64,000 nucleotides of DNA, from NCBI RefSeq assembly GCF_024223415.1, contig NZ_CP100500.1. The stretch is one strand, 5' to 3'. Shown piece after piece: positions 1 through 32,850 of this stretch (the stretch's first letter is position 1; each line of letters begins with the position of its first letter). The DNA is from Escherichia coli. Lineage in GTDB: Bacteria; Pseudomonadota; Gammaproteobacteria; Enterobacterales; Enterobacteriaceae. Both the position numbers and the translations under genes were made by a program. Under the pieces are notes generated by a model. The model made no database searches, was not told where the DNA came from, and saw nothing but the letters and a program-made list of their open reading frames with translations.

Positions 1-496
1 AACATCAATCTATATACACTATCAGAATTTCTATCTGGAGAGAGTCTTCGAAACGGAAGGAGAAGCCCAGAAGTTTTTGATACACATAAAAGATTGCATA
101 GAAGGAAAAATAAGACCAGGGGATCAATAATGCGAAAACATTATTCACAACCATATATCCGTAACAGTGCGCCACGCAGCAATAACCGCTGGAGCCTGCG
201 CGAAACACACGCAACACCAGGCGGTCACGTTGTAAAACAAACTGGGGAACACACCTGGCTGATTGAGCAGGCTGGACTCGTGATCCACAGATGCAACCGC
301 AATCCGTTTACCGGAAACCGCATCTTTGCACTGAGCAGCGGCGACAACCAGTTCGGGCAGGGTTTCACGCTACACGAAGCCCTGCGAACTGCCGACCGCT
401 TAATCGCGGGGCGCAGCTTTCAGCACCCGGATTACTAAAGAAAAGTCGGCTTAATAAGCCCTGAGCCAGTCTTAATAAGACATGAGAGGCGATAAG

Positions 497-739
497 ATGA
501 AAAGAGCCTACAAAGAAATCGCTAACGACATACTTCAGAATTATCACCTAACCCTTGCGAGCAACGGTGTCGCCTATGATGAGCAATCGTTCCGCGCAAT
601 GCAGGGTGGGATTCTTGGGCTGTATATCGCCGCCACAGCCAGCGGCGACCTCGAAGCGCTGGCAGAATTAAAGGTTATCTATCCGAAAGAACTTGGCGAA
701 GACCTGATTAAACCCTATCTCATTGAGGAGCTAGCATGA
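497..739 (+). CDS. hypothetical prophage early-region protein (about 80 aa)
   Basis: ORF with GAGG Shine-Dalgarno 8 nt upstream of ATG at 497; no family recognised. Confidence 0.35.
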   Translation: MKRAYKEIANDILQNYHLTLASNGVAYDEQSFRAMQGGILGLYIAATASGDLEALAELKVIYPKELGEDLIKPYLIEELA

Positions 740-941
740 ATATTCTTATCTCGTGGTTAATTCTCATCCTCGCCATTATTTGCGCGGTGGGAATCATGCG
801 AATTATTAACGGCATTAAAACCATCGAATCATTATTTACTGGCGACAAGCGCCATAAATAAATAACCGGAAATTACCAGAAAGCAAGAAAACATCCGCAA
901 CGGCGGAGGGATTCCCTTACGCCTGAAATAAGGAGCAGCGA

Positions 942-1157
942 ATGAGTAAACCACTAACCAGCATTGAGCGAAAAATTGTTTTTATGAATGTGGCAGGCGT
1001 GCAGTTCGAAGTGGATAAGCAGGTCATCGTCTCCGAAACGAGATGCCCGGCAGCAGGTGAGCAATGCACCTACCTGACACTGGCAGACGGCACGCAAATA
1101 ACCGCCGTCACCGACACCATTCGCGAGCTTGTGATTATCAGAGGGGTTAAACGATGA
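942..1157 (+). CDS. hypothetical prophage early-region protein (71 aa)
   Basis: Strong AAGGAG Shine-Dalgarno before ATG; stop overlaps next ORF start (ATGA). Confidence 0.45.
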   Translation: MSKPLTSIERKIVFMNVAGVQFEVDKQVIVSETRCPAAGEQCTYLTLADGTQITAVTDTIRELVIIRGVKR

Positions 1158-1366
1158 CCAGCAAATACACCACCAACGCACGCAAGCCAGGCAAGGAGGC
1201 ACGTCATCACATTGCCGTTCTGCGCAATCTCATCATGTGCGAAATCGACGACTTTGTGGCGGGACTGGGCCAGCCGGGCGAGCCAGCAACACCGGGCGAA
1301 ATACACAAAGAACTACGCCGCCGCATAGAAAGCGCGGTGGATTACGTCATGAACCCGAACGACTGA
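1154..1366 (+). CDS. hypothetical prophage early-region protein (70 aa)
   Basis: Translationally coupled to upstream ORF; no family recognised. Confidence 0.45.
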   Translation: MTSKYTTNARKPGKEARHHIAVLRNLIMCEIDDFVAGLGQPGEPATPGEIHKELRRRIESAVDYVMNPND

Positions 1367-1406
1367 CCAGAACGCGAGCGCGCGCCGGATGACGCACGCA
1401 TAACGC

Positions 1407-1892
1407 TTAGCGGGAAGCGCCAACCGTAAGGCTGGCAATGATTTTTTCGGAGAGTGAGAGAGATTCGCGATGATTAAGACCAAGAGCAGCACAAGCTTTA
1501 TTGCGCGCCGGGTTGTCCATGCATTCAAGCACCGGAGAGTCCTGCTTCTCAATTTCCACCAGTCGCGCCAGCAACACCTCCGTGCTGAGACCGTCGCTTT
1601 CAGTAATCAGGACGTTATAGCGATGAGCCTGTTCTTTTGCAGCCTGAGCGCGTCGCCCAAATTTGCAGGCGATATTGCAGCCACTAAGCACAGCCACGAT
1701 ACCACCCAGCAACCAACTGAAATTGCTGCCTGCAAACACAGTAGCCCCAGACGTAAGGATGACAGCATTAATCACCGTATCCATACGGCGGTTAAACACC
1801 TCCGAAATATGTTCAATCCAGTAACTGTTCCAGAGACGAAACATGACCTCGTGTCGCCGTTCGGCATGATTTTCAGTTGGTTGTCTGTTCAT
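1407..1892 (-). CDS. small predicted two-transmembrane-helix membrane protein (161 aa), opposite strand to the early operon
   Basis: GGAGG Shine-Dalgarno upstream of ATG; central hydrophobic hairpin VINAVILTSGATVFAG...WLLGGIVAVLSGCNIA. Confidence 0.5.
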   Translation of the reverse strand: MNRQPTENHAERRHEVMFRLWNSYWIEHISEVFNRRMDTVINAVILTSGATVFAGSNFSWLLGGIVAVLSGCNIACKFGRRAQAAKEQAHRYNVLITESDGLSTEVLLARLVEIEKQDSPVLECMDNPARNKACAALGLNHRESLSLSEKIIASLTVGASR

Positions 1893-2135
1893 TGCGGTTT
1901 AACCCTCCTCATCATCTCGCCCCTGCCCTTTTTCAGGCGCGGGAGCCGGTTGCCGTGGCACATGAAATTTATCGCTATCAGACATTTATTTTTTCCCGTG
2001 TGTTGTTGAACAAAGTGCCCGCACAGTTTTGACGGAACGGCGGGCGCTTCAAGCGTAACACACCCTTCTTTTCCGGTTGAAGGCGAAAAAAACCGGACAG
2101 CTACCCGACACAAACCAGACCAGCGGAGAACTGCC

Positions 2136-2690: not shown

Positions 2691-3013
2691 GCAATCACCA
2701 TGTACACACAAAAAAACCGCTTGCAACAACAAACCGGAACAGGGTACGCTTCCCATGCACCTCATAAAACGGGTGTCGGGATTCTCAACCTGCTGACAAA
2801 CGAAGCGCACAACCGCGCCAGCGGTTTTTTTGTGCGTACTGTATTGCCACGTCTTTTTCGCATCAGAATTATGGTGGGGCGTACGGGGCCGACTTCGGTC
2901 GGGCCGGTTTCTTCGTTTGCCGGTGTTGAGAACCCCGTACGTCTCGCCACCCCGAGATTCTCAACTCTGGTTGGTGAGTATCCAAAAACTCACAAACGAA
3001 GAGGCCAAACACC

Positions 3014-3676: not shown

Positions 3677-6166
3677 ATGGAGTTCGTCAGAGACTGGCAA
3701 AAACCGCGCCCCGCTATCGGGCGCGAAGGCTTACCCGTACCTGAAACCGCACTGGATACCATCCTGAAGTGTTACCGCGCGGACGAAGAGCGCGCCCTGA
3801 ACGCTGAAGAGCAGGGTCATCCGCTTGCGGGCACAACCATCGGTAACGCGATCGACAAGTGGGAAGGCGCACAGGAGCGCCAGGAAGAGGCCATCACGCT
3901 CACACAGGAAGCGAAGAGACGCCCACCCACCCTCATTGAGGAAACCCTCAAAGAGCTGGACACCCTGCCAAAGTGGTTGAGGCTGCCACTGATTAAGCAC
4001 CTGAACTTCTTAAGGCGCAAACAGGAGGACGAACAGCAGAAAGGCAAACGCGGCAAGGACACCCGCAAATACGAGCGCTTCGTACAGAACGGGATCCCCG
4101 CACGTCTTTGCCGTATTCGTGAGATTAACGATCGCTTTGCACCGTTGAGTTTTCAGGCCGCTGCCATGCGCGAGAGTCTGGAAGAGTTAATCACACTGCC
4201 GAACCTGAGCCGTGAACGCATCCAGAAAATAGCCGTACTGCTTGCCAGCGCCGTTAAAATGCATCTTGCCGACGCAATGGACAAGGCCCGCGAAATAACA
4301 GGGAACGACAAAGACGACAACCTGAACAACTGGCTGATTGCCTACCAGTATATTGGTCGCCGTGTCCTGAAGCTGGGGATCACCCCACCATACTGGAGCG
4401 CCCTTGAACTCCGTCCCGACCGCAGAAGCCCCCCGGACCTGACACTGGTACCGGGCGCTGTTTTGCGCCTGAACGACGCCGAATGGTGGAATAAAAAACT
4501 TCGCCAGATGCACGACGTCTGGCGTGAGGAACTTTTACGTGCAGCGGGCCTTGTATCCCGCCAGACCTCCATTTATGTGAGCCGGGAAGCACTGGCAGAC
4601 TTCCGCGAGAAACAGGCCCGTACCCGCGATTTTCTCAAAGCGCACGACGTGGAGAACGAAGACGGCGAACGCATCAGCCTGGAAGATATCTACTACACCA
4701 GTACATCCAACCCGCATAACCGCCGCAACGAGATGATGGCGTGCGTCAAGGGAATGGAGCTTATCGCACAGGAACGTGGCGACGTGGCCTTCTTCGTCAC
4801 GGTCACAGCCCCGTCTCGTTTTCACAGCGTCACCGACGCCGGTACCCTTAACCCGAAATACAAAGGCACAACAGTAAAAGACGCCAGCGACTATCTGGTT
4901 TATAACTTCTTCGCCTCCGCCCGCAAACTCATCAAAAAAGAGAAGCGGGGCTGGTACGGCATTCGCACCGTTGAGCCTCACCACGACGGCACGCCCCACT
5001 GGCACATGCTGGTATTCACAAGCCCCGAGAACGAAGCGCGCATCACGGAAATCATGTGCAATGCCGCCATCCGTGAAGACCGTGCAGAGCTGGGCGACGA
5101 CATTACCCCGCGCTTCAAGTGCGAGAAGATAGACCCCGAAAAAGGTACGCCAACCAGCTACATCGCCACCTACATCGGCAAAGGCATTGACGCCGCCGCA
5201 TTCGGCGACACGGATCCCAAAACAGGCAAACCGCCCGTTGACCACGAAAGCGGAAAACCTATGGCGGACACCGTGGAAAACGCCGTCGCCTGGGCACGCC
5301 TGCATCGCATTCGCCAGTTCCAGTTCTTTGGCCTTCCCTCACGTCAGGTGTGGCGCGAGTTCCGCCGCCTTGCCGGACAAATGGCACGCAACCCGAAGGG
5401 GCCGCAGGCACTGACCAACCCCAAAGCCGACGCTCTGCTGGCCGCCGCCGACGTGGGGTGTTTTGCCAGCTACATTATGCATCAGGGCGGCGTGCTCATT
5501 CCCCGCAGTGAATATCTGGCCCGCACGGCCTACGTCACCGCAGAAGAGCCGAACAACTACGGCGAGTTCCCCGACCGTATTTACGGTGTACGGATGCCGG
5601 AACTGGGCGATGAGTTCACGTTATGTACCCACCCGGAAGAGTGGAAACTCGTCAGAAAAGAACCGGAATCAGACGACCGCACGGGCGAGGGTTTTGACCT
5701 TCAGGGCGACCCCGTCGCCCCTTGGACTCGTGGCAATAACTGTCACCCTGACGAAAAAACAACCAACAACAGCACACAAACCGGACAGTCAGAGTGGGCA
5801 AAACTGCCCCCCTTACCCCCATCGTCGGACGGTTTTGTGAGCTGGTTTAAGTCGCTTAAGAGGCCGGACAGGAAAAAACTACAAAGATTGCTCAAAAAAC
5901 GCACCGAAGAGAGTCGCCAGAACGCCAGCGGCGGCACCGACACACCCACCGACACCATTAACCTGGGCGTTGTGCTGCCGGAACTGCCGGAAATCGTGCA
6001 AGTCCGCCGCGATCTGGAAGCGCTGGGCGCGGACTTCCCCGAAGCAATGGCCCATTCCGTCTTTATGGGTGCCCGCGTTCGTCTGGGTAACGGTCGCACC
6101 GTTCACCGCGACGAGCAGACCGGGCGCATCACCGTCACCAGTCTGCAACCGGAGGCGAAACCATGA
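3677..6166 (+). CDS. rolling-circle replication initiator, P2 gpA-like (829 aa)
   Basis: Large ORF with AGGAGG Shine-Dalgarno; contains the HWHMLVF histidine-hydrophobic motif typical of P2 A-type endonucleases. Confidence 0.85.
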   Translation: MEFVRDWQKPRPAIGREGLPVPETALDTILKCYRADEERALNAEEQGHPLAGTTIGNAIDKWEGAQERQEEAITLTQEAKRRPPTLIEETLKELDTLPKWLRLPLIKHLNFLRRKQEDEQQKGKRGKDTRKYERFVQNGIPARLCRIREINDRFAPLSFQAAAMRESLEELITLPNLSRERIQKIAVLLASAVKMHLADAMDKAREITGNDKDDNLNNWLIAYQYIGRRVLKLGITPPYWSALELRPDRRSPPDLTLVPGAVLRLNDAEWWNKKLRQMHDVWREELLRAAGLVSRQTSIYVSREALADFREKQARTRDFLKAHDVENEDGERISLEDIYYTSTSNPHNRRNEMMACVKGMELIAQERGDVAFFVTVTAPSRFHSVTDAGTLNPKYKGTTVKDASDYLVYNFFASARKLIKKEKRGWYGIRTVEPHHDGTPHWHMLVFTSPENEARITEIMCNAAIREDRAELGDDITPRFKCEKIDPEKGTPTSYIATYIGKGIDAAAFGDTDPKTGKPPVDHESGKPMADTVENAVAWARLHRIRQFQFFGLPSRQVWREFRRLAGQMARNPKGPQALTNPKADALLAAADVGCFASYIMHQGGVLIPRSEYLARTAYVTAEEPNNYGEFPDRIYGVRMPELGDEFTLCTHPEEWKLVRKEPESDDRTGEGFDLQGDPVAPWTRGNNCHPDEKTTNNSTQTGQSEWAKLPPLPPSSDGFVSWFKSLKRPDRKKLQRLLKKRTEESRQNASGGTDTPTDTINLGVVLPELPEIVQVRRDLEALGADFPEAMAHSVFMGARVRLGNGRTVHRDEQTGRITVTSLQPEAKP

Positions 6167-6709: not shown

Positions 6710-7084
6710 ATGAATAAACAGGATTTTGGACTTGATACCCTTTTGAGTATGCATGGTTACCAGCATCACATGGATAACGGGTACTGGTGGAAAATTAAGG
6801 CTTACCGGGTAAGTCCAAGTCCGTTCAGACCTCACGGGATACGCTACAATCTGACGTTACATGACCGCTACAATTCGCGTGTGTTTGGTATGGACAACGC
6901 ACATGGAATAAAACCGCCAAAGAAGGGAAGATTTACAGGAAAGTTAACTGTTTATGATCATGTGCACCGTACCCCGGTGGATAAAGGTTATCCCTATGAG
7001 TTTGTATCCGCAGAACAATTGTTATCTGATTTCTTTGATAACGTTGATCGGCTCATTAACGAAGTTACAAAGGGGAAAGCATGA
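6710..7084 (+). CDS. uncharacterised His-rich small protein (124 aa), first gene of cargo operon
   Basis: ORF follows an AT-rich promoter-like region with direct repeats (6640-6705); stop overlaps downstream start; no recognisable family. Confidence 0.6.
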   Translation: MNKQDFGLDTLLSMHGYQHHMDNGYWWKIKAYRVSPSPFRPHGIRYNLTLHDRYNSRVFGMDNAHGIKPPKKGRFTGKLTVYDHVHRTPVDKGYPYEFVSAEQLLSDFFDNVDRLINEVTKGKA

Positions 7085-7467
7085 AAGCCCGCATCGGGAT
7101 CATCCCGGAAAAAGTCCTGCGTCAGCGCCTGATTGAAATTGCCAAGGGGGAGCGGAAACCACACCCCGACGAGCCAAGGGTATGGTTTTCATCCATCAAT
7201 GCGGCGGGTCAGGCGCTGAGCAATGAAAATATCTCCCTTCTTCGTCTTATGGATGAGGAGAAACCGCAGACCATGACCGAACTTGCGGAGTTATCCGGCA
7301 GAAAACTGAGTAACCTGTCTGTAACCCTGAAAATGCTGAGCAGCTACGGTTTTGTCAGTCTGGAAAAGAAAGGAAATACCGTACACCCGAAGGCACTTTT
7401 TACCGATTTTGAAATCATCGTTGATCCGTCCGTCGGTTCAGTACATCGCGCCACCGCCCGCCCCTGA
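7081..7467 (+). CDS. uncharacterised protein with predicted winged helix-turn-helix (128 aa), second gene of cargo operon
   Basis: ATGA overlap with upstream ORF; segment TMTELAELSGRKLSNLSVTLKMLSSYGFVSLEK resembles MarR/ArsR-type wHTH; followed by hairpin terminator. Confidence 0.6.
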   Translation: MKARIGIIPEKVLRQRLIEIAKGERKPHPDEPRVWFSSINAAGQALSNENISLLRLMDEEKPQTMTELAELSGRKLSNLSVTLKMLSSYGFVSLEKKGNTVHPKALFTDFEIIVDPSVGSVHRATARP

Positions 7468-7480
7468 AGTGTGCAATAAA

Positions 7481-7505
7481 CAGCCCCGGTCGGGGCTGTT
7501 TTTTA
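7481..7505. terminator. bidirectional intrinsic terminator between convergent cargo operons
   Basis: GC hairpin CAGCCCCGGTCGGGGCTG flanked by T-run on the + strand and A/T-run on the - strand. Confidence 0.6.
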
Positions 7506-7877
7506 TTCCAGAATCAGCTGTTCAGGTGTGCAGCCGTACAGTCTGGCAAGGCGCTCAATATTTGCCCTGCGCGGGCGTTCTGTTCTTTCGAATTCGGACA
7601 CGGTAGCCTGCCTGATACCCAGCGCATCCGCCACCTGCTTTTGCGTCATTCCGCGATAGATTCGCCACGCCGCCTGCATGGTGCAGCCACGTTCCGAGAG
7701 GATGTTGACCACCTCGTTGGGATACAGCGTATCAGGCGATGCACTCGGTTCGTTCTGGACGTCCTCGTAGAGTTCGTCAAGGTCGCTGTCTCCTGCCAGT
7801 TTTTCAAACAACGCCACTGGCAGAATGACGGATACCCTGTTACCCGCACCGTCAGTAATAAACTGAATCTGACTCAT
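7503..7877 (-). CDS. XRE-family HTH protein, HigA-like antitoxin candidate (124 aa)
   Basis: AGGAGG Shine-Dalgarno 6 nt upstream; C-terminal HTH MTQKQVADALGIRQATVSEFE; downstream of a RelE/ParE-like ORF. Confidence 0.65.
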   Translation of the reverse strand: MSQIQFITDGAGNRVSVILPVALFEKLAGDSDLDELYEDVQNEPSASPDTLYPNEVVNILSERGCTMQAAWRIYRGMTQKQVADALGIRQATVSEFERTERPRRANIERLARLYGCTPEQLILE

Positions 7878-7950
7878 TTGCCCCTCCTGCTAAACATCGG
7901 TTTATTTTTTAATTTGCTGCCGGTGATAAAAAACGGCGGGTCGCCCCGCC

Positions 7951-8223
7951 TTAGTATGTTGTCGAGGTTCTCCGCTGAATACGGAGGATCCTGATAACCA
8001 CTATCTGCCCTCCCTCAATCGTGAACCTGACACGGTAATGATTTACCCTGAGTCTGTACTCCCCGCCCGAGTCAGTGAGCTTTTTAATATCCAGATTCTG
8101 GAACTTCGGATAGCCATAAAGCGCGTTAACTTTCTCGCGTAAGGATTTCTGATCCCTCGCTGGCAAAACCCGTAAATCTTTGATTGCCCGAGGGGTCCAC
8201 ATGATTTCAGTCGTCATAAACAC
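7951..8223 (-). CDS. RelE/ParE-superfamily toxin-like protein (about 83-90 aa; start at 8223, 8217 or 8202)
   Basis: C-terminal EYRLRVNHYRVRFTIEGGQIVVIRILRIQRR matches the RelE/ParE pattern; toxin-first (HigB/HigA-like) order. Confidence 0.6.
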   Translation of the reverse strand: MFMTTEIMWTPRAIKDLRVLPARDQKSLREKVNALYGYPKFQNLDIKKLTDSGGEYRLRVNHYRVRFTIEGGQIVVIRILRIQRRTSTTY

Positions 8224-9376: not shown

Positions 9377-10432
9377 TCAGGATATGGGCCGGGTGTCTAA
9401 CAGTGCGTAAGGGTTAAAACGGATCACCTCTTCGCCCAGCCAGTCGTTGACGTGTTTCATTGCTTCCATGACGGGCATCAGTTCGTTAATGGCAAACACA
9501 CGGGCTGCCTTCTCCACATCCCCGAATGACCCCTTCTCACCCGGCATGGCCCCCATCAGCTGAGGTGGCACGCGGTGCACAGCCAGCACGTCATCACGCG
9601 ATGCGGCCTTGACGTTCATGAACTCATCCTTTGCGGTGATTTGCTGAAACGGCAAAATCTGTACGCCATCCTTACCACCTCCCGCCGCGTGGATGAGCAG
9701 ATTTTTAAACGCCCCGCCACCACGCGCGCTTTGCAGCGTTTCCCGCAGTTTTTCCATGCTTTCACGGTCAACCTGCGCCGCACCGATGTAGACAATACAG
9801 CCCGCGTGTGAGCCGTTATCGTAGTAGAGCTTGCGGAAGATATCGGCGGAATGTGACAGGCTGGCAGACAGCAGGCCGCCCAGGTAATCCGGCATCCCGT
9901 AAATCTCCTGGTTGATATCAGGATTCATCAGGTGGCATATCGTCCCCTCACGAAAGCGGTACTCTTCCTGTCCTTCCTGTATATACCACCATGATTTCAT
10001 ATCGCTGCCACGTCGCATGTATTTCGCCAGCGCCCGGCGCAGGGCCAGCGGTTCGCCAAGCATGTTGCGCCGCAGCTCAAGACAGGCATTACCGAACACA
10101 AACCAGTCCATCGCCACCCCGGCGAACTCCTGGCGGGACAGCAGAGGATGTGGAATATAGCAGCCCAGCAGCACATTACGTTTGAAGCTGAGCGCCGACT
10201 GGTGCCAGGACGTCTGGCGGGCAGCCCGTGCCAGTCCGTACCAGTCAACGGGCGTTTCAAACCACCGCCCGTTGTCGGCGCAGTACATGCTGTCCAGCAG
10301 GTCGGCCCCTGACAGCCGGTAAGGTCCTTCAAACGTGAAGGCACTCAGTGTCGGGTCGCTTCGCAGGGAATCCGCAAGGCTGCCCTGCGCTGCGCGGGCG
10401 TTCGTACGTCGTTGTTTATTTTTTCTGCTCAT
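9377..10432 (-). CDS. portal protein (P2 gpQ-like, 351 aa)
   Basis: Size and position immediately downstream of the terminase ATPase gene on the same strand, as in the P2 PQ operon. Confidence 0.75.
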   Translation of the reverse strand: MSRKNKQRRTNARAAQGSLADSLRSDPTLSAFTFEGPYRLSGADLLDSMYCADNGRWFETPVDWYGLARAARQTSWHQSALSFKRNVLLGCYIPHPLLSRQEFAGVAMDWFVFGNACLELRRNMLGEPLALRRALAKYMRRGSDMKSWWYIQEGQEEYRFREGTICHLMNPDINQEIYGMPDYLGGLLSASLSHSADIFRKLYYDNGSHAGCIVYIGAAQVDRESMEKLRETLQSARGGGAFKNLLIHAAGGGKDGVQILPFQQITAKDEFMNVKAASRDDVLAVHRVPPQLMGAMPGEKGSFGDVEKAARVFAINELMPVMEAMKHVNDWLGEEVIRFNPYALLDTRPIS

Positions 10433-13174: not shown

Positions 13175-13202
13175 CAGAAATAACCACAAGAGGTGATAAC
13201 CG

Positions 13203-14342: not shown

Positions 14343-14344
14343 CC

Positions 14345-19306: not shown

Positions 19307-19309
19307 ATC

Positions 19310-20762: not shown

Positions 20763-20765
20763 ACC

Positions 20766-23459: not shown

Positions 23460-23948
23460 TCACATCAGATCATTTACGCCGCTTACTGTGGTATTCCAGA
23501 CCGAACTTAACTTCCCTTTCATTCCCGAAAGCATATCAGACACCGGCGACGAGGCCATACTCTCCCGCAAATCCTCATCACAGCGTTCCAGACTGACAGT
23601 GAACTCAATTTTTTTGGCCTTACCGTGGCGGTCAAGTTCGCTTCGCGTTGTGCGGACAGCCGTTATCACATACATGCCGTATATCTGCCCCACACCGTCA
23701 ATCAGCGGCCATGGGCGACCAGTGTAAGCCTGCGTCGTTAAAAGGCTGAGGGAAACCTCACCGCCGGTAATTTCGGGATAAAGCACACCGGACAACGTGA
23801 TCTGGTCGTCACCCGCCCCGATATACTGCCAGCTGGCCGAACGATTGATGCGTTCATTTTTAACGTGGCGCCAGGTTTTATTATGTTGCAGTTGTTGATG
23901 AGGCAGCGTACGCAACTCAAAAACAAACATGCCGTAAATCATCATCAT
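23460..23948 (-). CDS. tail protein U (P2 gpU-like, 162 aa)
   Basis: MMMIYGMFVFELRT...WRH...NRS...TLSGVL...TGG closely resembles the P2 gpU N-terminus. Confidence 0.75.
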   Translation of the reverse strand: MMMIYGMFVFELRTLPHQQLQHNKTWRHVKNERINRSASWQYIGAGDDQITLSGVLYPEITGGEVSLSLLTTQAYTGRPWPLIDGVGQIYGMYVITAVRTTRSELDRHGKAKKIEFTVSLERCDEDLRESMASSPVSDMLSGMKGKLSSVWNTTVSGVNDLM

Positions 23949-23959
23949 GCGAGGTACTC

Positions 23960-26900
23960 CTAATCTCTGTCACGGAAACTACCGACTGTCTGGCGGATAC
24001 GGCGTTCCATTTCCGCACGGACGGCATCACCCACCATTTTTGCCAGTTCGCGCGGGTTTTGCGTGTGAACATCATGCAGGTGAATATGCAGTTCGCCAGT
24101 TAATCCCCATGGTGCCGGATCACTCTGACGCGGTCGGGGCGATGCGGGGGATATGGGCTGGCGTACAGCCTCAACCACCGGACGGGATGTTGCCGTTACG
24201 ACGGGTGTCATTACCGGCGCAATATTGCCGGACACGACCGGTTTAATTACCGGGGAGAGCGTCGGTATAACATCGCCAGCCATAACCGGTTTGATCGCTG
24301 GCGAAATAACCGGAGCAACAGACTCAGCCATGACGGAACTGACAGGCTGAGGCGCTCTCACTATGCCAGCATCGATAACCAGCATGAGCTCGCGTACTGC
24401 CTCAAGGACAGGACGGGATATTGCCGCCATCACTGGTGTCATTAGCGGGGAGAACGTCGGCATGACATCGTGAGTCATAACCGGTTTGATCACCGGCGAA
24501 ACCACCGGCGTAATATTACCGGACAGTACCGGACGGACGACCGGAGGAATAACCGGCACATTATTCACGGACACCACCGGCTTCACGACCGGCGACACGT
24601 TCGCCGTGGTGGATATCAGCGGCGAAACACTGACAGGCGGTGGCGCTGGCAGCGGTGGCAACGAAGGCACACTGACCGACGGCACCTGCGGCAGTCTGAC
24701 AGGTGGCTCACTGACACTACCCGGTAACAGGGAAGCTGCGCGGTTAAAGCGTTCCTCCTTCCACTCACCACGAACGGCCAGCGCTTCCGGCAGGTTTTTA
24801 AAGATAATATCGCCGGGACCAGTGCGTTTTTTCGCCTGTTTCGCCTCATCCAGCAGACCACCGGTGTTATCGACGATTTTGTTCAGGCGGCGCATAGTGC
24901 CGGTATTCTCCCCCGTCAGGGGTGGTTGCCCCCCTTTGGGTTTTTCGCCGTCTTTTTTATCCTCGTCCTTTTTCGGCGGATTAATGACGTTAACATCCGC
25001 CAGAAGCATGGCAGCTTTCTCGTTCAGCAACTCCTTCTGTTTTAGTTCTTCCGCCTTTTTCCGGGCGCGCTCAACCGCCGACGGAATCAGCCCGAGTTTT
25101 TCCAGCACCCGGGTTAATGAGTCAATCAGCAGCGTAACCGGACCGGTCACCAGATTGCTGATAAACTCCCCGACCTTCTGCCCGAACGTACGCCCGGCTT
25201 CCGTGCACTTGTCCAGCTCATCCTTTGTTGTGCTTACCGGCGCGAACAAATCCACGAACCACTGCCACACACGCCCGATTGTCTGCCCGACATACTCAAA
25301 CAGCGGTCCCAGTGGTGCCACAGCCTCGCGCAGTGGCGTAAGCCCCTGCCACAGGCCGGACAAGAACCCGCCCACGACAGCCTTCAGCTGGTCCCAGTGC
25401 CGCCAGATAAGCACTGCCGCACCGACCAGTGTCGCCACCACAAGGCCCACCGGACTTAACAGAAAACCCAGCGCCCCGCCAAGTGCGCCCACCGCACCAC
25501 TCACCATCCCCCACAGTGCGGGCAGACCTGACAGTCTGAGCGCCAGTATTCCGATACCGCGCCCCAGTGAAATCAGTGCGCCGCCAGGTGAAGTGAACGC
25601 AGCCAGCAGACCACCACGCAGCGTACCGAGTAGTCCGCGCACGCCACGAAGCCGGACCGCAAGCCGTCCCGCACCGGTATCAAGACCGGCAAACAGCACA
25701 CGCCAGCCGCCAATACCACTCATCGACCCACCGAGTACGCCGCGCAGCTGCGTCAGTAACGGCAGCGCACGACCGAGGCCGGATGTGCCGGTCAGCAGGG
25801 CAAAACCAAGACGCAGTTTTGCCAGCGGCCCCAGCAACACGCCGGTAGCCAGTGACAGCGCCCCCGTGGCCGCAACCGCAGCCAGCAGTGCACCACCGGC
25901 AATCAGCAGTTGTTTTGTCAGTTCAGGGTGCGCCTGAGCCAGCGCGGTGACTTTCGCAATAACCCGGGTGAACGACTGCGTGACAGAACGCAGCGGCCCG
26001 TCAACGAGGTCAGCGACACGGATACGCAGCCCTTCCCATGCGCTGTTCAGTGATTTCAGGTCGCCGTCCAGGTTGTCCGCCATGATTCTGGCGTTTTCTT
26101 CCAGTTCGCCGTTGGCTGCCTGAATCTCACGCGTCAGGCGCGGCAGGTTTTTTTCGCCTGCCTGTTCAACCAGGCTCATCAGGGAGACATACGCCTCCTG
26201 ACCGGCAATATCTGAAAAGAACGAGACTTTTGCCGCGTTACCGTATTTACGGGTGGCCTGATACAGCTCATACAGGATATCTTCCATCGGGCGCATGTTC
26301 CCGTAAGCATCCTGCGTTTCCACGCCCAGCTGTTTCAGCGCCTTTGCTGCCGCTTTAGGCGGGTTCACAAGGCGGGACAGACTGGAGCGCAGCGCCGTAC
26401 CAGCATCACTGCCACGTATCCCCATCGACCCAAGCAACCCGGTCATGGCTGCGGTCTGTTCAAGAGACAGACCGAGTGAGGCGGCGACCGGTCCCGTATA
26501 TTTCATCGTCTCACCAAGCCCGCGCAGGTCGGTATTGGTGCGGGTGAACGTTGCGGCCAGCGTGTCACCCACGCGGTTCATCTGGTCGGCAGACAACCCG
26601 AACTGTGTAAGGATATTTGAGCTGATATCGGCCGTCTGACCGAGGTCCATGCCGCTGGCCGTTGCCAGATTCAGCACGCCGGGAAGAGCCGCCTGTATCG
26701 CCTGCGGCGTGAACCCCGCCATGGCAAGGAACGCCTGACCGCTGGCAGCATCACCTGCGGTAAACTGCGTTTCGGAGCCGAGTTTAAGCGCCTGTTCGCG
26801 CAGCGCCTTAAACTGCGGACTGTTTTTGTCAATACGGGTCAGCGCCTGGACGCGCGACATCTCCTTACCAAAACTGACCGCCGGTTGCAGGAAACGCCCG

Positions 26901-27517
26901 GCCGCATAGCCACCTGCCGCTGCCGTGCCGACTGCCGTAAATCCACCCGCTTTCAGTTTTCCCGCCATCTCCTGAGCGCGGAAATATTGCTGGCGTGCCT
27001 GCGTGACGCGTGCCAGAGTCTGCCGTTCACGTTCCAGCTGTTCGTTGTATTGCTGTGTTCGCCGTATGGCCTGTTGAATGGTGTTGTCACTGCCGGAAAG
27101 CGCAATACCGTGACGCCGCAGCTCACCACCCAGTTCGCGCATTCGCTGAACTTCACGCGCACGGACCTCATTGAGACGCTCAAGTTTGAGGCTCAAATCG
27201 TTCATCAGCTTTTTCTGTTTGTCAGACAGCACGGTTCCGGCGCGCTGAATTTGCTGAAGTGCGCTTAACTGGCGTTGTGCCCGGGCAATGCCGTTTCCGG
27301 CCTTGTTTGCAGCCTCGCGGGCGCGATCAAATGAACGGGCGTGGCGTTCCAGGTTTTTGATCGCACCCTGCGTTCTCTGTATGGAGTCGCCAAGCTGGCC
27401 CATCATGCGACGGGCGTTTTCGGTGGGACGGGTCAGCCTGTCAACAGCGCTGAAGGCGACCCGTATATCAAGCGTTTTCATGCTCTGCGTTCCCGCTGCG
27501 AAGGGCCGCCCGCTCAC
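23960..27517 (-). CDS. tail tape measure protein (P2 gpT-like, 1185 aa) with C-terminal Pro/Val-rich repeat extension
   Basis: Long helical/Gly-rich ORF between E and U; C-terminal about 200 aa made of PVxxP-type repeats. Confidence 0.85.
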   Translation of the reverse strand: MSGRPFAAGTQSMKTLDIRVAFSAVDRLTRPTENARRMMGQLGDSIQRTQGAIKNLERHARSFDRAREAANKAGNGIARAQRQLSALQQIQRAGTVLSDKQKKLMNDLSLKLERLNEVRAREVQRMRELGGELRRHGIALSGSDNTIQQAIRRTQQYNEQLERERQTLARVTQARQQYFRAQEMAGKLKAGGFTAVGTAAAGGYAAGRFLQPAVSFGKEMSRVQALTRIDKNSPQFKALREQALKLGSETQFTAGDAASGQAFLAMAGFTPQAIQAALPGVLNLATASGMDLGQTADISSNILTQFGLSADQMNRVGDTLAATFTRTNTDLRGLGETMKYTGPVAASLGLSLEQTAAMTGLLGSMGIRGSDAGTALRSSLSRLVNPPKAAAKALKQLGVETQDAYGNMRPMEDILYELYQATRKYGNAAKVSFFSDIAGQEAYVSLMSLVEQAGEKNLPRLTREIQAANGELEENARIMADNLDGDLKSLNSAWEGLRIRVADLVDGPLRSVTQSFTRVIAKVTALAQAHPELTKQLLIAGGALLAAVAATGALSLATGVLLGPLAKLRLGFALLTGTSGLGRALPLLTQLRGVLGGSMSGIGGWRVLFAGLDTGAGRLAVRLRGVRGLLGTLRGGLLAAFTSPGGALISLGRGIGILALRLSGLPALWGMVSGAVGALGGALGFLLSPVGLVVATLVGAAVLIWRHWDQLKAVVGGFLSGLWQGLTPLREAVAPLGPLFEYVGQTIGRVWQWFVDLFAPVSTTKDELDKCTEAGRTFGQKVGEFISNLVTGPVTLLIDSLTRVLEKLGLIPSAVERARKKAEELKQKELLNEKAAMLLADVNVINPPKKDEDKKDGEKPKGGQPPLTGENTGTMRRLNKIVDNTGGLLDEAKQAKKRTGPGDIIFKNLPEALAVRGEWKEERFNRAASLLPGSVSEPPVRLPQVPSVSVPSLPPLPAPPPVSVSPLISTTANVSPVVKPVVSVNNVPVIPPVVRPVLSGNITPVVSPVIKPVMTHDVMPTFSPLMTPVMAAISRPVLEAVRELMLVIDAGIVRAPQPVSSVMAESVAPVISPAIKPVMAGDVIPTLSPVIKPVVSGNIAPVMTPVVTATSRPVVEAVRQPISPASPRPRQSDPAPWGLTGELHIHLHDVHTQNPRELAKMVGDAVRAEMERRIRQTVGSFRDRD

Positions 27518-27631
27518 GCCAGGCGACCACCTCGCCGGGATCCATCAGGAAGATTTCAGCGGGAGACCAGTTGAAAATAACGGCGATATCCGCCACAAAG
27601 TCTTCAATATGCTCAAAGGGCACGACGGTTA

Positions 27632-27994
27632 TCAGCCTGCCGTCGCCGCCACGCTCTTCCCGCCAGAGTCCTGACCGGCCAAAAAATTAACCGCCACCCC
27701 GCACAGCTGAATAAAATCAGCGGACCCCATGCGCTTAAGCAGAACCTCGTCCAGTCGCGGCGAAGTGACGCGCGGGAGTAACTCAAACATCGCGTCCGTT
27801 TTCATGTTCAGCACGTCAAGCAGTGACAGCCCGCGCAGTGAACCGGCCTGCTGTACAGCAGGCGTGATTTCCACATACGTGATTTTTTTGTTACCGAGCA
27901 CAAGGGGCGTTTTCAGCGTCACGCCGCGCTCACTGGTCACGTCCGCCGCATCAGCACCGTCAGTAACAGGGGCAACAACCGGATTTTCTTTCAT
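27632..27994 (-). CDS. tail assembly chaperone (P2 gpE-like); E' presumably made by -1 frameshift
   Basis: Position between tail tube and tape measure genes; TTTTTTG heptamer near the 3' end. Confidence 0.65.
   Translation of the reverse strand: MKENPVVAPVTDGADAADVTSERGVTLKTPLVLGNKKITYVEITPAVQQAGSLRGLSLLDVLNMKTDAMFELLPRVTSPRLDEVLLKRMGSADFIQLCGVAVNFLAGQDSGGKSVAATAG
27680..27686 (-). other. slippery heptamer T_TTT_TTG for programmed -1 frameshift (E/E' chaperone)
   Basis: Reverse complement of CAAAAAA at 27680-27686 lies in-frame at ...NFLAGQ... near the end of gpE. Confidence 0.55.
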
Positions 27995-28044
27995 GCATAA
28001 AACCTCAAATCAGGGGGCGACGCCACGCGCCGCCGTGGAAAACA

Positions 28045-28563
28045 TTAACCACCAAGACCAATCGCCGAGCGCACGCGGTCCGGGAAGACGCTTTTGCCGT
28101 CCTTGCGTTCGATGTGGTTCAGTAAATCAATCTCCAGCACCGGACGGTCGTTAATGCTGAGTTTGTAGTAGGTACTTTTGACCGCATAGGTGTGAGACGT
28201 GACCTCACCCTGTTTGGCCTCCCCGGTATCAATTTCCGTCACGCGACCGCGAAGCTCAATCTCGTACAGGTCACTCTGTTCTTCATCGTTGTAGTACTCA
28301 CCGACAAAGCGCAGCAGCGTACCGTCAATCGTTCCGCCGTACTTGAGGAACAGTTCGCGGGTCGGCCCGCCCATGGTGAAACTCGCATCCAGCGCGCCGT
28401 CATCCAGGCCAAGGTCGATATTTACTGCACCGGCCATACCACCACCGCGATAGGCTTCCGTTTTACGGGTCAGTTTGGGGGCCGTGAAGCCGGTCACTCT
28501 GCCAATCTGGTTCACCCCGTCAGTAAACAGCGTGAACACCCTGAGATTTTTTGGTACGGCCAT
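28045..28563 (-). CDS. tail tube protein (P2 gpFII-like, 172 aa)
   Basis: Position and size downstream of sheath gene. Confidence 0.75.
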   Translation of the reverse strand: MAVPKNLRVFTLFTDGVNQIGRVTGFTAPKLTRKTEAYRGGGMAGAVNIDLGLDDGALDASFTMGGPTRELFLKYGGTIDGTLLRFVGEYYNDEEQSDLYEIELRGRVTEIDTGEAKQGEVTSHTYAVKSTYYKLSINDRPVLEIDLLNHIERKDGKSVFPDRVRSAIGLGG

Positions 28564-29846
28564 TAAGCACCTCCAAGCGTCGCAAATGCAGGACCAAAGA
28601 ATTCATCAGTAAACGTCTGGTAAAGTTCCATATCCTCAAGCGGCGGAACGGGCGTGTACTTGTAGCGGATACGCACGCGTCCCTGACGAAGTTCCGTGGT
28701 GCTGTTATCCACCACGTCATACCAGCACTCCGCACCAACGAGACGTCCTGACGTAACCAGCGCATCCAGTTTTGCGCGAATTGCGCTTAACACGTCTTTC
28801 ACATTAGCAGGGGTCAGCGGGGCATCAATCGTTTCAAACTGCGCTTCCGCAACAGAATCAGCCAGCACCTGAGCGGTTCGCGTGTACACCTCAAAGATAT
28901 ACGCCTTCGTTTCCGGCGTACGGTTGCCCCAGAAGCGGAAACCGTTACGGCGAATGATGGTGGTGATTTCCTTGTTGTTGAGATTGTTGGCATCGCTGTC
29001 TTCGGACTGAAGGGACCAGAACACCGGGCTGGAAATACCCAGCACATTTCTTACCGGCACGTTGGACAGCGATTTATGCCAGCCCTGTTCGTGGTCAATA
29101 CGTGCACGTAAACCGCAGGCGTACGCCGCAGCCGGGAAGACCTCATTAGCGCCGGATTTCGGGTTATGGGCGATGAAGTCAGGCCAGAGCAGCATAAGTT
29201 CGCGCTCGTTAAATCTGGCGCGGTAGCTGATTGCATCAGCGGGCTTCTTGCAGTTGTGACAGCCCGCGTAGACAAATGCGCGAAGTTTTTCTGCAATTAC
29301 ACACAGGGATTTTGTGACAGCTTCAGTATCCAGTCCGGGAGCTGCGATGATGCGCGGACGGTAACCGATGGCATCATCCTGTTCAGCTATCAGAAGTGCA
29401 TACATACCGGTATAATTACCGTCGCCATCCGTGCCACCAATGACATACTGGTCCTGCGTTTTGTGTGGGTATACAGGATGTGCATCTTCAGACTCATCAA
29501 TACCAAAAAATGCCCTGTCTTCAGGATCCAGATGACCGAATGATGTAACTCCTGTATCCGGGGCGCCCTGAGAACTGGCATCAGGAACGCGCACCACAAT
29601 CACCTTCGTGCTCACCTGGTCGGCGACAGCCTTAAGCGATTTGTAAAGCGTCCCCTTTGTGCCGGCCTTACCCAGCACATCACTGACGCGGGTCAGCAGT
29701 GTGGGTTTGTTCAGCGGGAACAGAGTTTCATCCGCGTCATCTGCCGTAGCCACAATACCAATAACACTGGAATCCACATCATTAATGGCGGTGGCAAGGC
29801 CGGTACTTTCCCTTACGCGCGCACCATGAAAGCGTGTTTCACTCAT
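28563..29846 (-). CDS. tail sheath protein (P2 gpFI-like; start at MSETRFHGARV)
   Basis: N-terminal region resembles the P2 FI N-terminus (HG..V.E...G......A.VG...TA.DAD...FPLNKP). Confidence 0.8.
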   Translation of the reverse strand: MSETRFHGARVRESTGLATAINDVDSSVIGIVATADDADETLFPLNKPTLLTRVSDVLGKAGTKGTLYKSLKAVADQVSTKVIVVRVPDASSQGAPDTGVTSFGHLDPEDRAFFGIDESEDAHPVYPHKTQDQYVIGGTDGDGNYTGMYALLIAEQDDAIGYRPRIIAAPGLDTEAVTKSLCVIAEKLRAFVYAGCHNCKKPADAISYRARFNERELMLLWPDFIAHNPKSGANEVFPAAAYACGLRARIDHEQGWHKSLSNVPVRNVLGISSPVFWSLQSEDSDANNLNNKEITTIIRRNGFRFWGNRTPETKAYIFEVYTRTAQVLADSVAEAQFETIDAPLTPANVKDVLSAIRAKLDALVTSGRLVGAECWYDVVDNSTTELRQGRVRIRYKYTPVPPLEDMELYQTFTDEFFGPAFATLGGA

Positions 29847-29922
29847 ATGTTTCACCCTTGTCTGGCTGGTTGATTTTGCGTAATCATTACCCACACACGC
29901 GGTAATCTCACCCCTTTGATGT

Positions 29923-29940
29923 TGTCTCCTGACAGCGACA
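29923..29940. promoter_or_regulatory. TGT-N12-ACA dyad (candidate Ogr site) between divergent FI and D genes
   Basis: TGTctcctgacagcgACA lies about 55 bp from plausible start sites for both FI (minus) and D (plus). Confidence 0.4.
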
Positions 29941-30007
29941 ACAAAACAGCCATTCAACGCCGCTACGGTGCATGAAACCATTACAGAACGCACCAGGAGA
30001 GAACACC

Positions 30008-31099
30008 ATGAAAGAGCTGTCAGTTACCGTTCCGTCACCGGATATCGACATCACCATCAACAACAACACACTGGCAAACCTCACAGAGCGACTCATGACG
30101 CTGTCACTGACCGACAACCGGGGCTTTGAGGCGGACCGCGTCACCCTGACCATTGACGACGCGGACGGGCAGCTTCAGCTGCCACAGCGCGGCGCACGCC
30201 TGAACGTGATGATTGGCTGGCGCGGGGAGGCGCTGGTTAACAAGGGTGTCTACATCGTTGATGAAGTGACGTGGGAAGGCCCGCCGGACAAACTGACCAT
30301 CACCGCCAGCAGCGCCGATTTTCGCGAAGAGTTCAACGTGAAGCGTGAAGTCTCCTGGCACGACGTGACGGTAAAACAGGTTGTGTCAGCCATCGCGCAC
30401 CGCTACGGCCTGAAAGCACAGATAAGCGATATCCTCATGGATATCGAAATTGACCACGCAGACCAGACCGAAGAGAGTGATATATCCTTCCTGACCCGCA
30501 TGGCTGAAATGCTGGGTGCGATTGCCACCGTAAAAAACGGCAGCCTGTTATTCATTCTGCCGGGTGGCGGAACCGGGCCGGACGGAAAAGCCCTGCCTTC
30601 GTTCGCCATTACCCGCAGCAGCGGCGACAGTCACCGCTTTCGCATTGCTGACCGTGATGCGTATACGGGGGTCCGGGCGCACTGGCTCGATCTGAAGTTC
30701 GGGCAAAAGAAAAAAGTGAACGTGAAGCGACGCAGGGAAGCCGGGAAACAGAAACAGGAGAAGAGCAGCAGCCGGGAAGGTGATTACATGGAAGGCGCGG
30801 AAGGTAACGTCTACGTTCTGCGCAGGACTTACCAGAATGAAGAAACCGCACGACGTGCAGCAGCTGCAAAGTGGCAGGAACTACAGCGGGGCGCGGCATC
30901 ATTCTCCATCACGCTGGCGCGCGGTCGTGCCGACCTGTACCCTGAAATGCACGGCAGGGTAACAGGTTTTAAAAGCGAGGTGGACAATCAGGACTGGATT
31001 ATTGCCAGGGTGGAGCACAGCATAGATGAAAGCGGCTTCACCACACAACTGGAGCTGGAAGCGAAAATCCCCGAATGGATAGCAGATTCAGGCGGATAA
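30008..31099 (+). CDS. tail/late control protein D (P2 gpD-like, 363 aa)
   Basis: AGGAGA Shine-Dalgarno; size and position just before ogr. Confidence 0.75.
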   Translation: MKELSVTVPSPDIDITINNNTLANLTERLMTLSLTDNRGFEADRVTLTIDDADGQLQLPQRGARLNVMIGWRGEALVNKGVYIVDEVTWEGPPDKLTITASSADFREEFNVKREVSWHDVTVKQVVSAIAHRYGLKAQISDILMDIEIDHADQTEESDISFLTRMAEMLGAIATVKNGSLLFILPGGGTGPDGKALPSFAITRSSGDSHRFRIADRDAYTGVRAHWLDLKFGQKKKVNVKRRREAGKQKQEKSSSREGDYMEGAEGNVYVLRRTYQNEETARRAAAAKWQELQRGAASFSITLARGRADLYPEMHGRVTGFKSEVDNQDWIIARVEHSIDESGFTTQLELEAKIPEWIADSGG

Positions 31100-31142
31100 A
31101 ATTAAAATGAGCCATCTCCACTCAGCCAGATAAGGAGAAGCC

Positions 31143-31394
31143 ATGTTCCGTTGTCCCCTGTGCGGTGCATCCGCACGTATCCGCACCAGTCGCAATGAAA
31201 ATGATTCAGGCACAGTTCGCCTGAAGTACTACCAGTGCAATAACCTCGAATGCGGGATCGGCTTTACCACACTGGAGGGTTTTAACAAATTCACATCAAA
31301 ACGCGCCCCGTCGCCGCAGGGTACAGAGCGGATACCGTGGGAAGATTTTCCGGGATCTCACAGGGGGAATGCTCAGATGAATCTTGATATTTAA
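31143..31394 (+). CDS. ogr: Ogr/Delta-family zinc-finger late transcription activator
   Basis: MFRCPLCGASARIRTSR...YYQCNNLECGIGF carries the CxxC...CxxC finger and N-terminal similarity to P2 Ogr. Confidence 0.85.
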   Translation: MFRCPLCGASARIRTSRNENDSGTVRLKYYQCNNLECGIGFTTLEGFNKFTSKRAPSPQGTERIPWEDFPGSHRGNAQMNLDI

Positions 31395-31399
31395 GAACA

Positions 31400-32405
31400 A
31401 TAATCAGGTTGAGAGGACATCATAAGGCAAGTAGATTAACGGCAGATACTTTCCCGCAACCACGGGCAAGTATTTAATTATCCATGATGAAATATGACCT
31501 AAATTGTTTTTTGCCCGCCGGAAAGCGGGCATTTTTTTATTCTTTTGTGGTTATGGGGTCATCAGGAACCACGTGCAGATTATATTTTTGTTTTTTTGGC
31601 GTTCCTCCGGCAGCAACGAGTTCATCAATAAGACACTGACACGCCTGAACATCCCGGGCATGTCTTAGTTTCACCTTTATTGATTTAACCTTATCCTCAC
31701 CGGAGGAGAAATGCAGTTCAATCTCAATATCGTTTCTTCGGAACAATCTCATACGCCCCCCTGAATATATCAGAAATGCTAGTATCGAAAAATGAGAAAA
31801 CAGTTAGACAGGAGAAACATATTAACACAAATCATTTATACCTATAGATGAAATTATAATTTCATTCATGAATATGATAGATAACTATATTGTGAACAAA
31901 ATGAAAAATGGCTAAATTAAAAATGGGCATGGAGGAATGCCTCGTAATCAGTAATACATGATCCATACTTCCTTGTTTTGCCCGCCGGAAAGCGGGCATT
32001 TTTTTGGCGGTTACCATCGCCTCACCTTCCTGGTTCACACAAAGCAACCCTGATTTTCCATGAAAACTTCAGGGTTGAGCCAAAAGCACAAAGACAGTAG
32101 ATTAACCAAGGGTACCCGCCACCTGCCAACAGGAACGGTATCCAGTACGTATTAATGACTGACAATTCACATTGCTGTTTTGCCCGCCAGAAGGTGGGCA
32201 TTTTTTTGGCAGTTATCATGGACGCACCTTCATGACACATATTAAGCAGACCTGATTTTTCCATGAAAAATTCATGGTTGAGACAAAAGCACAAAAACAG
32301 TAGATTAACCACGGGTGCCTGCCACCTGACAACAGGAAGGGGTGTCCATTATCCATGATATACAAACGAAAAGTCTTGTCTTTTGCCCGCCGTTGCGCGG
32401 GCTTT
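31400..32405 (+). repeat. array of four related modules, each a promoter-like TTGAGA/TTGTGA-N17-TAGATT/TAAATT plus an intrinsic terminator (GCCCGCC...GCGGGC + T-run)
   Basis: Terminator hairpins at about 31512, 31978, 32181 and 32384; units 32000-32200 and 32200-32405 are about 200-bp paralogues sharing sequence with the unit just after ogr. Confidence 0.6.
31537..31752 (-). CDS. hypothetical small protein (71 aa) inside the repeat/att region
   Basis: ORF with weak G-rich Shine-Dalgarno; may be a remnant. Confidence 0.25.
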   Translation of the reverse strand: MRLFRRNDIEIELHFSSGEDKVKSIKVKLRHARDVQACQCLIDELVAAGGTPKKQKYNLHVVPDDPITTKE

Positions 32406-32440
32406 TTTTTTGCCACCCTCACCAGTGAGGGTACCATCAT

Positions 32441-32659
32441 TCAGAGGCGCGTAAGCCACCCGGCGTTAACATCCTGCCCGTCAACCCTGACCGCAGAGTC
32501 TGAACGGCAGGCACCGGAAGCAGTACCAAAAACACCTCTGACAAGTTCCGCCACCTTCCCGATATCATCAGGCGCCACATTCCTCACCTCGACAGTGATC
32601 CGTGGCGTACCATCATCGTTAACAAGCGTGGCTTTAAGGCTGGTACGACGGGCAAATAA
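32441..32659 (-). CDS. hypothetical small protein (72 aa)
   Basis: GGGAGGGGG Shine-Dalgarno before ATG; followed by a bidirectional terminator around 32722-32755. Confidence 0.35.
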   Translation of the reverse strand, partial: LFARRTSLKATLVNDDGTPRITVEVRNVAPDDIGKVAELVRGVFGTASGACRSDSAVRVDGQDVNAGWLTRL

Positions 32660-32819
32660 CATCAACACCCCCTCCCTTCGGTTCGTTGCACTGGCAGCAC
32701 GATACCACCAGGAAAAAGAAAAGCCCACAACGTCAGGATTGCGGGCTTTTTTTCTTCAAAAATGGACACTACGTGGACACTGATTAAATAATCCTTTCTT
32801 AATCAGACTGTTAAAATGC

Positions 32820-32850
32820 TTGACCTTCCCCTTGCTGGAAGGTTTAACCT
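32820..32850 (+). promoter_or_regulatory. copA promoter with CueR (MerR-type) operator dyad
   Basis: CTTGACCTTCCCCTTGCTGGAAGGTTTAACC: -35 TTGACC, inverted repeat CCTTCC...GGAAGG in a long spacer, as known for PcopA. Confidence 0.7.

Follow-up and report, generated by a model that had tools for sequence, protein, structure and literature searches.

A stretch of 64,000 nt of Escherichia coli DNA (assembly GCF_024223415.1, contig NZ_CP100500.1), called the window in the following and used for all coordinates, carries a P2-family prophage joined directly to copA. The explanation that fits best, with a probability of about 0.9, is a ~35-kb temperate phage of this family with a Gemsvirus/P88-like gene order, integrated site-specifically in the copA promoter (PcopA). 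Positions 1-32838 would encompass the right attachment site (attR) and most of the phage. It is supposed that a tyrosine integrase recombined the phage attachment site (attP) with a bacterial site (attB) that is the copA promoter itself. Since attP would carry the bases of a 20-bp core, strand exchange inside this core would regenerate a complete PcopA at attR, while a truncated promoter copy would be left at the left attachment site (attL) beside glsA, outside the window. The crossover presumably takes place in the 7-bp centre CCTTGCT. By comparison with the empty site, the prophage is to be placed inside PcopA, not merely upstream of it, and the phage may have supplied part of the promoter at attR.

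Attachment core, junctions and empty site

The right junction consists of the following elements.

1-32818: phage-specific DNA, the right ~32.8 kb of the ~35-kb Peduoviridae prophage (extent via comparison with the prophage of GF60, see below)
32819-32838, plus strand: att core (common core, O), 20 bp, CTTGACCTTCCCCTTGCTGG
32820-32850, plus strand: PcopA, identical to K-12, with the -35 hexamer TTGACC at 32820-32825 and the -10 hexamer TAACCT at 32845-32850
32824-32842: CueR box CCTTCC-N7-GGAAGG in the 19-bp spacer
32890-35394, plus strand: copA, with its ATG at 32890

Within the core lie the complete -35 hexamer and, of the CueR box, the left half-site, the 7-bp centre, and the two bases GG with which the right half-site begins. 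From 32819 to the copA start codon (32819-32892), the window is base-for-base that of K-12, with all elements of the CueR-dependent promoter present; the CueR box and the 19-bp spacer of PcopA are as described (PMC8169799). Comparison with the empty-site strain NCTC10444 yielded 0 mismatches in 643 bases rightward from 32819 and no similarity leftward, i.e. similarity to the empty site breaks exactly at 32818|32819. In K-12, the site is likewise empty, with glsA 262 bp from copA and divergently oriented.

The opposite junction is available from GF60, where the gene order is ybaT-glsA-attL-int-helix-turn-helix (HTH) repressor-...-D-ogr-attR-copA. Its prophage, bounded by glsA and copA, matches window 1-32818 over the full length with 98.5-98.9% identity. 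attL in GF60 reads ...ATTAATTT CTTGACCTTCCCCTTGCTGG|GGACAAAG (with longer flanks, ...GGTTTATTAATTT CTTGACCTTCCCCTTGCTGG | GGACAAAGAACTG...), and the host sequence there stops after ...TGG. attR reads ...GTTAAAATG|CTTGACCTTCCCCTTGCTGG AAGGTTTAACC (with a longer left flank, in the window, ...CAGACTGTTAAAATG | CTTGACCTTCCCCTTGCTGG AAGGTTTAACC...). Thus, the 20-bp core forms a direct repeat at both ends of the GF60 prophage and is present as a single copy in the empty sites of K-12 and NCTC10444. The attP expected from these junctions reads GTTAAAATG-core-GGACAAAG. A second core copy, at attL next to glsA, is found in five complete E. coli genomes; their prophages are ~98.5-99% identical to that of the window. 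For the strain of the window, synteny with GF60 predicts attL ~2.3 kb left of position 1 (...TTTCTTGACCTTCCCCTTGCTGGGGACAAAG), and the left ~2.3 kb of the prophage (attL, int, repressor, and the first early gene) would lie between that point and the window.

Occupation of the site is rare. The phage-copA junction of the window was found in 5 of the 5426 complete E. coli genomes of the junction scan, and the empty glsA-copA site in 5402 of the 5422 that gave a match in the empty-site scan (99.6%). An earlier note on this DNA had placed the prophage directly upstream of an intact copA promoter at 32820-32850, in the position of the divergent neighbour known from K-12. The promoter is indeed identical to that of K-12, with exact coordinates, and the displaced neighbour is glsA, replaced by phage DNA; the comparison with K-12 around copA that the note proposed gives identity from 32819 onwards. 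"Upstream" is correct insofar as the phage displaces the upstream DNA, but not for the att core, which lies inside PcopA.

Integrase, attachment arm and competing explanations

According to synteny with GF60 (~98.9% identical prophage), int is located 1229-2242 bp left of window position 1. The GF60 integrase (Int), a protein of 337 aa with Int_N and Phage_integrase domains, has the same length as P2 Int and is 47% identical to it, with a very similar N-terminal arm-binding region; in a collection of 50,697 phage records, identity did not exceed 53% among the matches listed. These values agree with the integrase specificity different from P2 that the earlier note had postulated. Its assumption that int lies outside the window is borne out by GF60, in which both int and attL, beside glsA, were identified. 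The part of attP that the window itself contains shows the following features.

32411-32818: att module, the P arm of attP, site-specific and not present in relatives integrated at ihfA
32441-32662, minus strand: open reading frame (ORF) of 73 aa within the att module
32719-32753: G+C-rich hairpin with flanking A and T runs, a terminator scored on the minus strand only
32761-32780, plus strand: two direct arm-type Int repeats, AATGGACAC and CGTGGACAC, putative, by homology to P2
32781-32805: A/T-rich IHF-like box TGATTAAATAATCCTTTCTTAATCA, which aligns with the annotated IHF site AAATAAATCCTTTTATTTCAA of P2

The arm repeats match the TGTGGACAC repeats of the P and P' arms of P2 (TGGACAC type) and align with the annotated Int P-arm site of P2 (TGTGGTCA/TGTGGAC). 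The hairpin corresponds in position to the ogr/F-operon terminator of P2 attP, where ogr, terminator, two TGTGGACA-like arm repeats, IHF box, and core follow each other as they do here; terminator, arm repeats, IHF-like box, and core of the window are P2-like in both order and spacing. As in P2, in which the P' arm repeats lie within the 3' end of int, TGTGGACACTCAATGGACA is found in the 3' end of GF60 int. By homology to P2, Int and IHF would bind the arm sites named above. The cores, in contrast, are unrelated: that of P2 lies within AAAAAATAAGCCCGTGTAAGGGAGATT, whereas CTTGACCTTCCCCTTGCTGG serves here, with the copA promoter as attB.

The terminator at 32719-32753 is positioned across attP from int. 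Its effect on int transcripts would be limited to the circular phage, an arrangement like that of sib in phage lambda; in the prophage, int transcripts face glsA (attL, L002 16277-16346). Behind the int stop codon, all alleles have a conserved hairpin.

Several points weigh against site-specific integration of a temperate phage as described here. int, attL, and the repressor are all located outside the window, and the left end is taken from ~99% identical prophages of other strains. In GF60 the tape-measure gene is disrupted (pseudogene), so that some copies may be defective. A free-phage attP was not found: a scan with exact attR/attP 26-mers gave 0 matches in IMG/VR and in species-representative genomes, a gapped pattern of arm repeat and core was needed to find attR-type junctions, and both IMG/VR matches proved to be prophage ends with copA attached. 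Moreover, since attL and attR are identical across the 20 bp, the strand-exchange point cannot be placed within them.

The disrupted tape-measure gene and the missing attP form in the IMG/VR scans, together with clear remnants at the site in E. coli H1827/12 and Citrobacter amalonaticus, would also suit a fixed defective remnant without excision, which goes back to one old, vertically inherited event and not to a live specificity. This explanation is doubtful. Every hallmark gene tested in the window is an uninterrupted ORF, including that of the 1185-aa tape measure, and the lysogens, CS5L, CM2, and Ch1 among them, stem from different strains and countries. The host DNA at 39000-63900 is 100% identical to several complete E. 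coli genomes, e.g. NCTC10444 and KV7, and strains with a flank identical to that of the window have an empty site. Furthermore, diverged Int alleles, different backbones, and the same core in several genera would require repeated independent integrations. The empty site in these strains, and the contiguity of glsA and copA in 5402/5422 genomes, also refute an ancestral phage-copA arrangement that K-12 has lost, for which no evidence was found. With direct core copies at the two ends of the insert and an integrase encoded in it, this view is hardly credible. The same low rank is assigned to an assembly chimera at 32818|32819. The window alone would be compatible with it, but the junction recurs in five independent complete genomes, and equivalent junctions exist in another E. 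coli with the second Int allele, on two IMG/VR contigs, and in three other genera. Thus, neither of the two outcomes that the earlier note had named as refuting its view was encountered.

A direct repeat flanking an element could finally be a transposition-like target-site duplication or a chance match, which is very improbable here. A P2-type tyrosine integrase and an arm whose repeats and IHF box are spaced as in P2 do not fit a transposition-like process, and the repeat measures 20 bp in one allele and 28 bp in another with a constant right boundary, as expected for homology between attP and attB. As regards chance, a search of the 64-kb window with 3 mismatches allowed gave no second copy of the core.

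The same target in other genera and the phage lineage

Recombination at the copA promoter is not confined to the prophage type of the window. A second Int allele (82% identical) is encoded in 12 further E. coli genomes; in both of the two examined (strains 2-1 and H1827/12) it adjoins glsA, in a different P2-like prophage or remnant. The attL of this allele ends at the same base, and the core in strain 2-1 extends to 28 bp, ATTAATTTCTTGACCTTCCCCTTGCTGG. Integrases with 65-66% identity were found in Enterobacter, Yersinia enterocolitica, and Kosakonia beside cueR-ybbJ-qmcA, with an attL ending in CTTGACCTTCCCCTTG(C/A)TGG; in these three, no glsA-ybaT lies between copA and cueR. The gapped scan retrieved an attR-type arm and core followed by copA in Kosakonia sacchari (where sheath FI, tube FII, D, and Ogr precede it), Pantoea stewartii (where the contig begins at the junction), and Citrobacter amalonaticus (with an int remnant and an acyltransferase). 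Since the same core is used by diverged integrases in several genera with differing neighbours, the target is the conserved PcopA/CueR-box sequence, not a given neighbour gene. A target defined as "next to cueR" was rejected, because glsA-ybaT lie between cueR and the insertion point in E. coli. A scan match in Atlantibacter was discarded as well; it lacks both phage genes and the terminator/arm layout and probably represents GTGGACAC that happens to lie near a native promoter. Neither copA nor cueR adjoins the integrase relatives of 61-65% identity from Salmonella (P0035), E. coli (P0017), and Citrobacter (P0020), which means that percent identity alone does not predict the site; the core was not present at the E. 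coli P0017 loci.

A backbone of D, ogr, and repeat array that is 99-100% identical to that of the window was found in four E. coli genomes. In the one examined, Br_112_kylling (L028 4513-5644), it lies next to ihfA-pheT and ends in a HicAB module. These sibling prophages share D, ogr, and the array with the window up to ~32410, but differ in the HicAB module and the other att site beside ihfA-pheT. The comparison shows that the int/att module is exchangeable within the lineage and determines the integration site. As the array is 99-100% identical in the ihfA-adjacent prophages and similarity stops at ~32410, the array is to be regarded as phage cargo and not as part of the att site.

The assignment to the P2 family, already made in the earlier note, is supported by Pfam hallmarks spread across 1-31394: gpA, portal, terminase, GPO scaffold, capsid, small terminase, GPL, GpR, S, V, J, tail fibre, TAP, GpU, tape measure, tube FII, sheath, GPD, and Ogr/Delta. 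gpA (PF05840, 3677-6166) and Ogr/Delta (PF04606, 31143-31394), two characteristic members of the set, are both present. The head module shows the divergent arrangement Q-P | O-N-M-L in the order and orientation of P2, and the contractile tail and baseplate set is represented by R, S, V, W, J, I, H, G, FI, FII, E, T, U, and D. The lysogeny switch of the ~99% identical GF60 prophage consists of int (337 aa) and an HTH repressor of 99 aa; a Cox-like first early gene is weakly suggested in one Enterobacter relative. From these data, the element is best classified as a member of the Peduoviridae outside the genera Peduovirus (P2) and Eganvirus (186), as no deposited phage, members of these two genera included, covers at least 80% of the query. 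The closest deposited phage, Gemsvirus 500465-2, aligns with 34% of the query at 77% identity; with deposited phages in general, DNA identity does not exceed 77% and extends over at most one third of the genome. The gene order, including an inverted tail block, is common to Escherichia phage 500465-2 (Gemsvirus) and the P88-like Xuanwuvirus, but 500465-2 differs in its right end and integration region, and its record continues into unrelated host genes. With P2, the prophage type shares the order attL-int-C...D-ogr-attR. Unlike in P2, the sheath-tube-E-T-U block is inverted and ~1.4 kb of cargo lies between ogr and the att arm. The genes and RNA elements of the prophage are listed below.

130-438, plus strand: DUF4761 early-operon gene (PF15958, E=3e-45)
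2757-2831, plus strand: isrK-like RNA (Rfam, 59.8 bits, over the gathering score)
2867-2954, plus strand: C4 antisense RNA (Rfam, 79.2 bits, over the gathering score)
3677-6166, plus strand: gpA replication endonuclease (PF05840 Phage_GPA, E=2e-100)
6710-7467, plus strand: accessory pair of DUF6516 and a winged-helix regulator of the HVO_A0114 type (GF60 annotation, Pfam)
7503-8223, minus strand: accessory pair of an HTH antitoxin-like protein (HTH_3) and a ParE toxin (ParE_toxin) (GF60 annotation, Pfam)
9377-10432, minus strand: portal, Q-like (PF04860)
10432-12183, minus strand: large terminase, P-like (PF03237, PF17289, PF06056)
12338-15724, plus strand: GPO scaffold, P2-family major capsid, small terminase, and head completion GPL (PF05929, PF05125 with E=1e-115, PF05944, PF05926)
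15724-23389, plus strand: tail X, holin-like gene, lysozyme, GpR, S, V, W, J, I, H, G (Pfam, GF60 annotation)
20766-22778, plus strand: tail fibre H, with fibre assembly G in the same 15724-23389 block
23460-29993, minus strand: GpU, tape measure (1185 aa), E-like gene, tube FII, and sheath FI (PF06995, PF10145, PF04985, PF04984)
29972-31099, plus strand: GPD late-control/tail protein (PF05954)
31143-31394, plus strand: Ogr/Delta zinc-finger late activator (PF04606)
31407-32410, plus strand: repeat array with four intrinsic terminators, TTTTGCCCGCC..GGGCATTTTTTT
31509-31538, 31976-32005, 32178-32207, and 32381-32410, plus strand: the terminators of the array
31537-31752, minus strand: ORF of 71 aa inside the array

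The block 23460-29993 lies on the strand opposite to that of its P2 counterpart, an inversion also found in Gemsvirus. In the early operon, the isrK-like RNA and the C4 antisense RNA are adjacent, upstream of gpA; the pair suggests an antisense immunity or anti-repressor module of the P1/P7 type in a P2-family phage. Both accessory pairs (6710-8223) are located between gpA and the portal gene.

The repeat array that the earlier note had seen upstream of the promoter is real. Three of its four terminators are preceded by a promoter-like TTGAGA-17-TAGATT box and then ~70 nt; in the folded units, an A/U-rich linker connects a 5' stem-loop with the terminator. Such a layout is that of Hfq-type small RNAs (sRNAs), which makes the units candidate tandem sRNA genes, three or four in number. 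Transcripts of ~95 nt are predicted at 31444-31538, 32110-32207, and 32313-32410. A search of 31000-32900 against Rfam in E-value mode returned only sub-threshold, terminator-driven matches, so the units belong to no curated RNA family. The array had no match among the 50,697 phage records, and its units were found in 30 of 5426 E. coli genomes. The small minus-strand ORFs of 71 and 73 aa gave no Pfam match; one of the two matches the C-terminal half of a PHROG of unknown function, the 73-aa ORF being without a PHROG match.

To the right of the prophage (32890-64000), the chromosome follows the reverse K-12 order, starting from copA with an IS3-family element, ybaQ, ybaP, ybaK, ushA, fsr, ybaL, gsk, aes, and hemH, and continuing with adk, htpG, recR, ybaB, dnaX, apt ... 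mscK, and acrR. The IS3-family insertion sequence (35773-36923; HTH_28 in orfA, rve in orfB) lies between copA and ybaQ and is not present in GF60, where ybaP comes ~430 bp after copA. RNA features of the host part are naRNA4/REP-type elements, sroB, and the dnaX frameshift element (37042-37119, 38417-38500, 44180-44258, 52181-52245).

Predicted regulatory consequences and meaning of the site

From -36 to the copA ATG the sequence is unchanged, and everything upstream of -36 is phage DNA. Because the former part is unaltered, CueR-dependent activation of copA should be intact, and CueR control of the gene should be kept in the lysogen. The upstream context is a different one. A perfect CpxR-consensus box, GTAAAAGTCCGTAAA (GTAAA-N5-GTAAA), precedes the core by 20-34 bp in the empty sites of K-12 and NCTC10444 and stays at attL with glsA in GF60; no CpxR-type box was found in window 32500-32900 with 1 mismatch allowed, so that the native upstream context of copA is not retained. 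In lysogens the box would consequently be lost to copA and remain with glsA. Both copA and glsA are reported to be Cpx-regulated (PMC11005409, PMC9600279), and GTAAAAGTCCGTAAA itself may be the element that mediates this regulation.

Four plus-strand array terminators and the hairpin at 32719-32753 lie between late phage transcription and copA. Since int and glsA share one strand at attL, read-through from the C-int operon into glsA-ybaT is possible. In Enterobacter (L009 5020-5115) and Yersinia (L016 4020-4115), the start codon of cueR is ~8 bp from the att core; the prophage replaces the upstream region of cueR there, and cueR lies directly downstream of int on the same strand. Transcription of cueR in these lysogens may depend on read-through from the phage C-int operon.

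The type of event is an ordinary one, i.e. a temperate phage with a new site specificity whose target is rebuilt. Phages 21 and e14, which integrate in icd, and phages integrating in the 3' ends of tRNA genes restore function by an attP copy of the host sequence. The element rebuilt here is a promoter with a MerR-type operator, in contrast to the coding or tRNA 3' ends used by those phages. The integration site is rare and apparently undescribed; in the literature within reach of the search, which left out most subscription journals, no paper was found that describes it.

In its geometry, with inverted sites around 7 bp, the CueR box CCTTCC-N7-GGAAGG corresponds to a tyrosine-recombinase core, and the host sequence in every attL examined ends two bases past the 7-bp centre. 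A tentative and rather unlikely extension is that a P2-type integrase clade has adopted a MerR-type operator as its recombination site, gated by CueR, and that lysogeny rewires regulation. If Int cleaves on either side of CCTTGCT, resident CueR would compete with integration and excision or gate them. Were this the case, lysogeny would change the wiring of both metal and envelope-stress responses: copA would be separated from its CpxR box, glsA-ybaT would come to lie directly downstream of the constitutively transcribed C-int operon, and in Enterobacter and Yersinia cueR would be the gene immediately downstream of int.

For the P2 family, the finding adds a precisely mapped attB to the known repertoire, the -35 region of PcopA with the CueR operator. 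Its core is used in at least four genera (E. coli, Enterobacter, Yersinia, and Kosakonia), with traces of the junction in Pantoea and Citrobacter, and the exchange of int/att modules within one phage lineage is documented by the ihfA-site siblings. The integrase and its att sites might serve as an orthogonal pair for genome engineering in enterobacteria. For the host, the prediction is testable: CueR control of copA is kept, the CpxR input is lost, and read-through into glsA (elsewhere into cueR) is possible. Competition between a phage integrase and a resident transcription factor for a single DNA site could be studied here in a natural setting.

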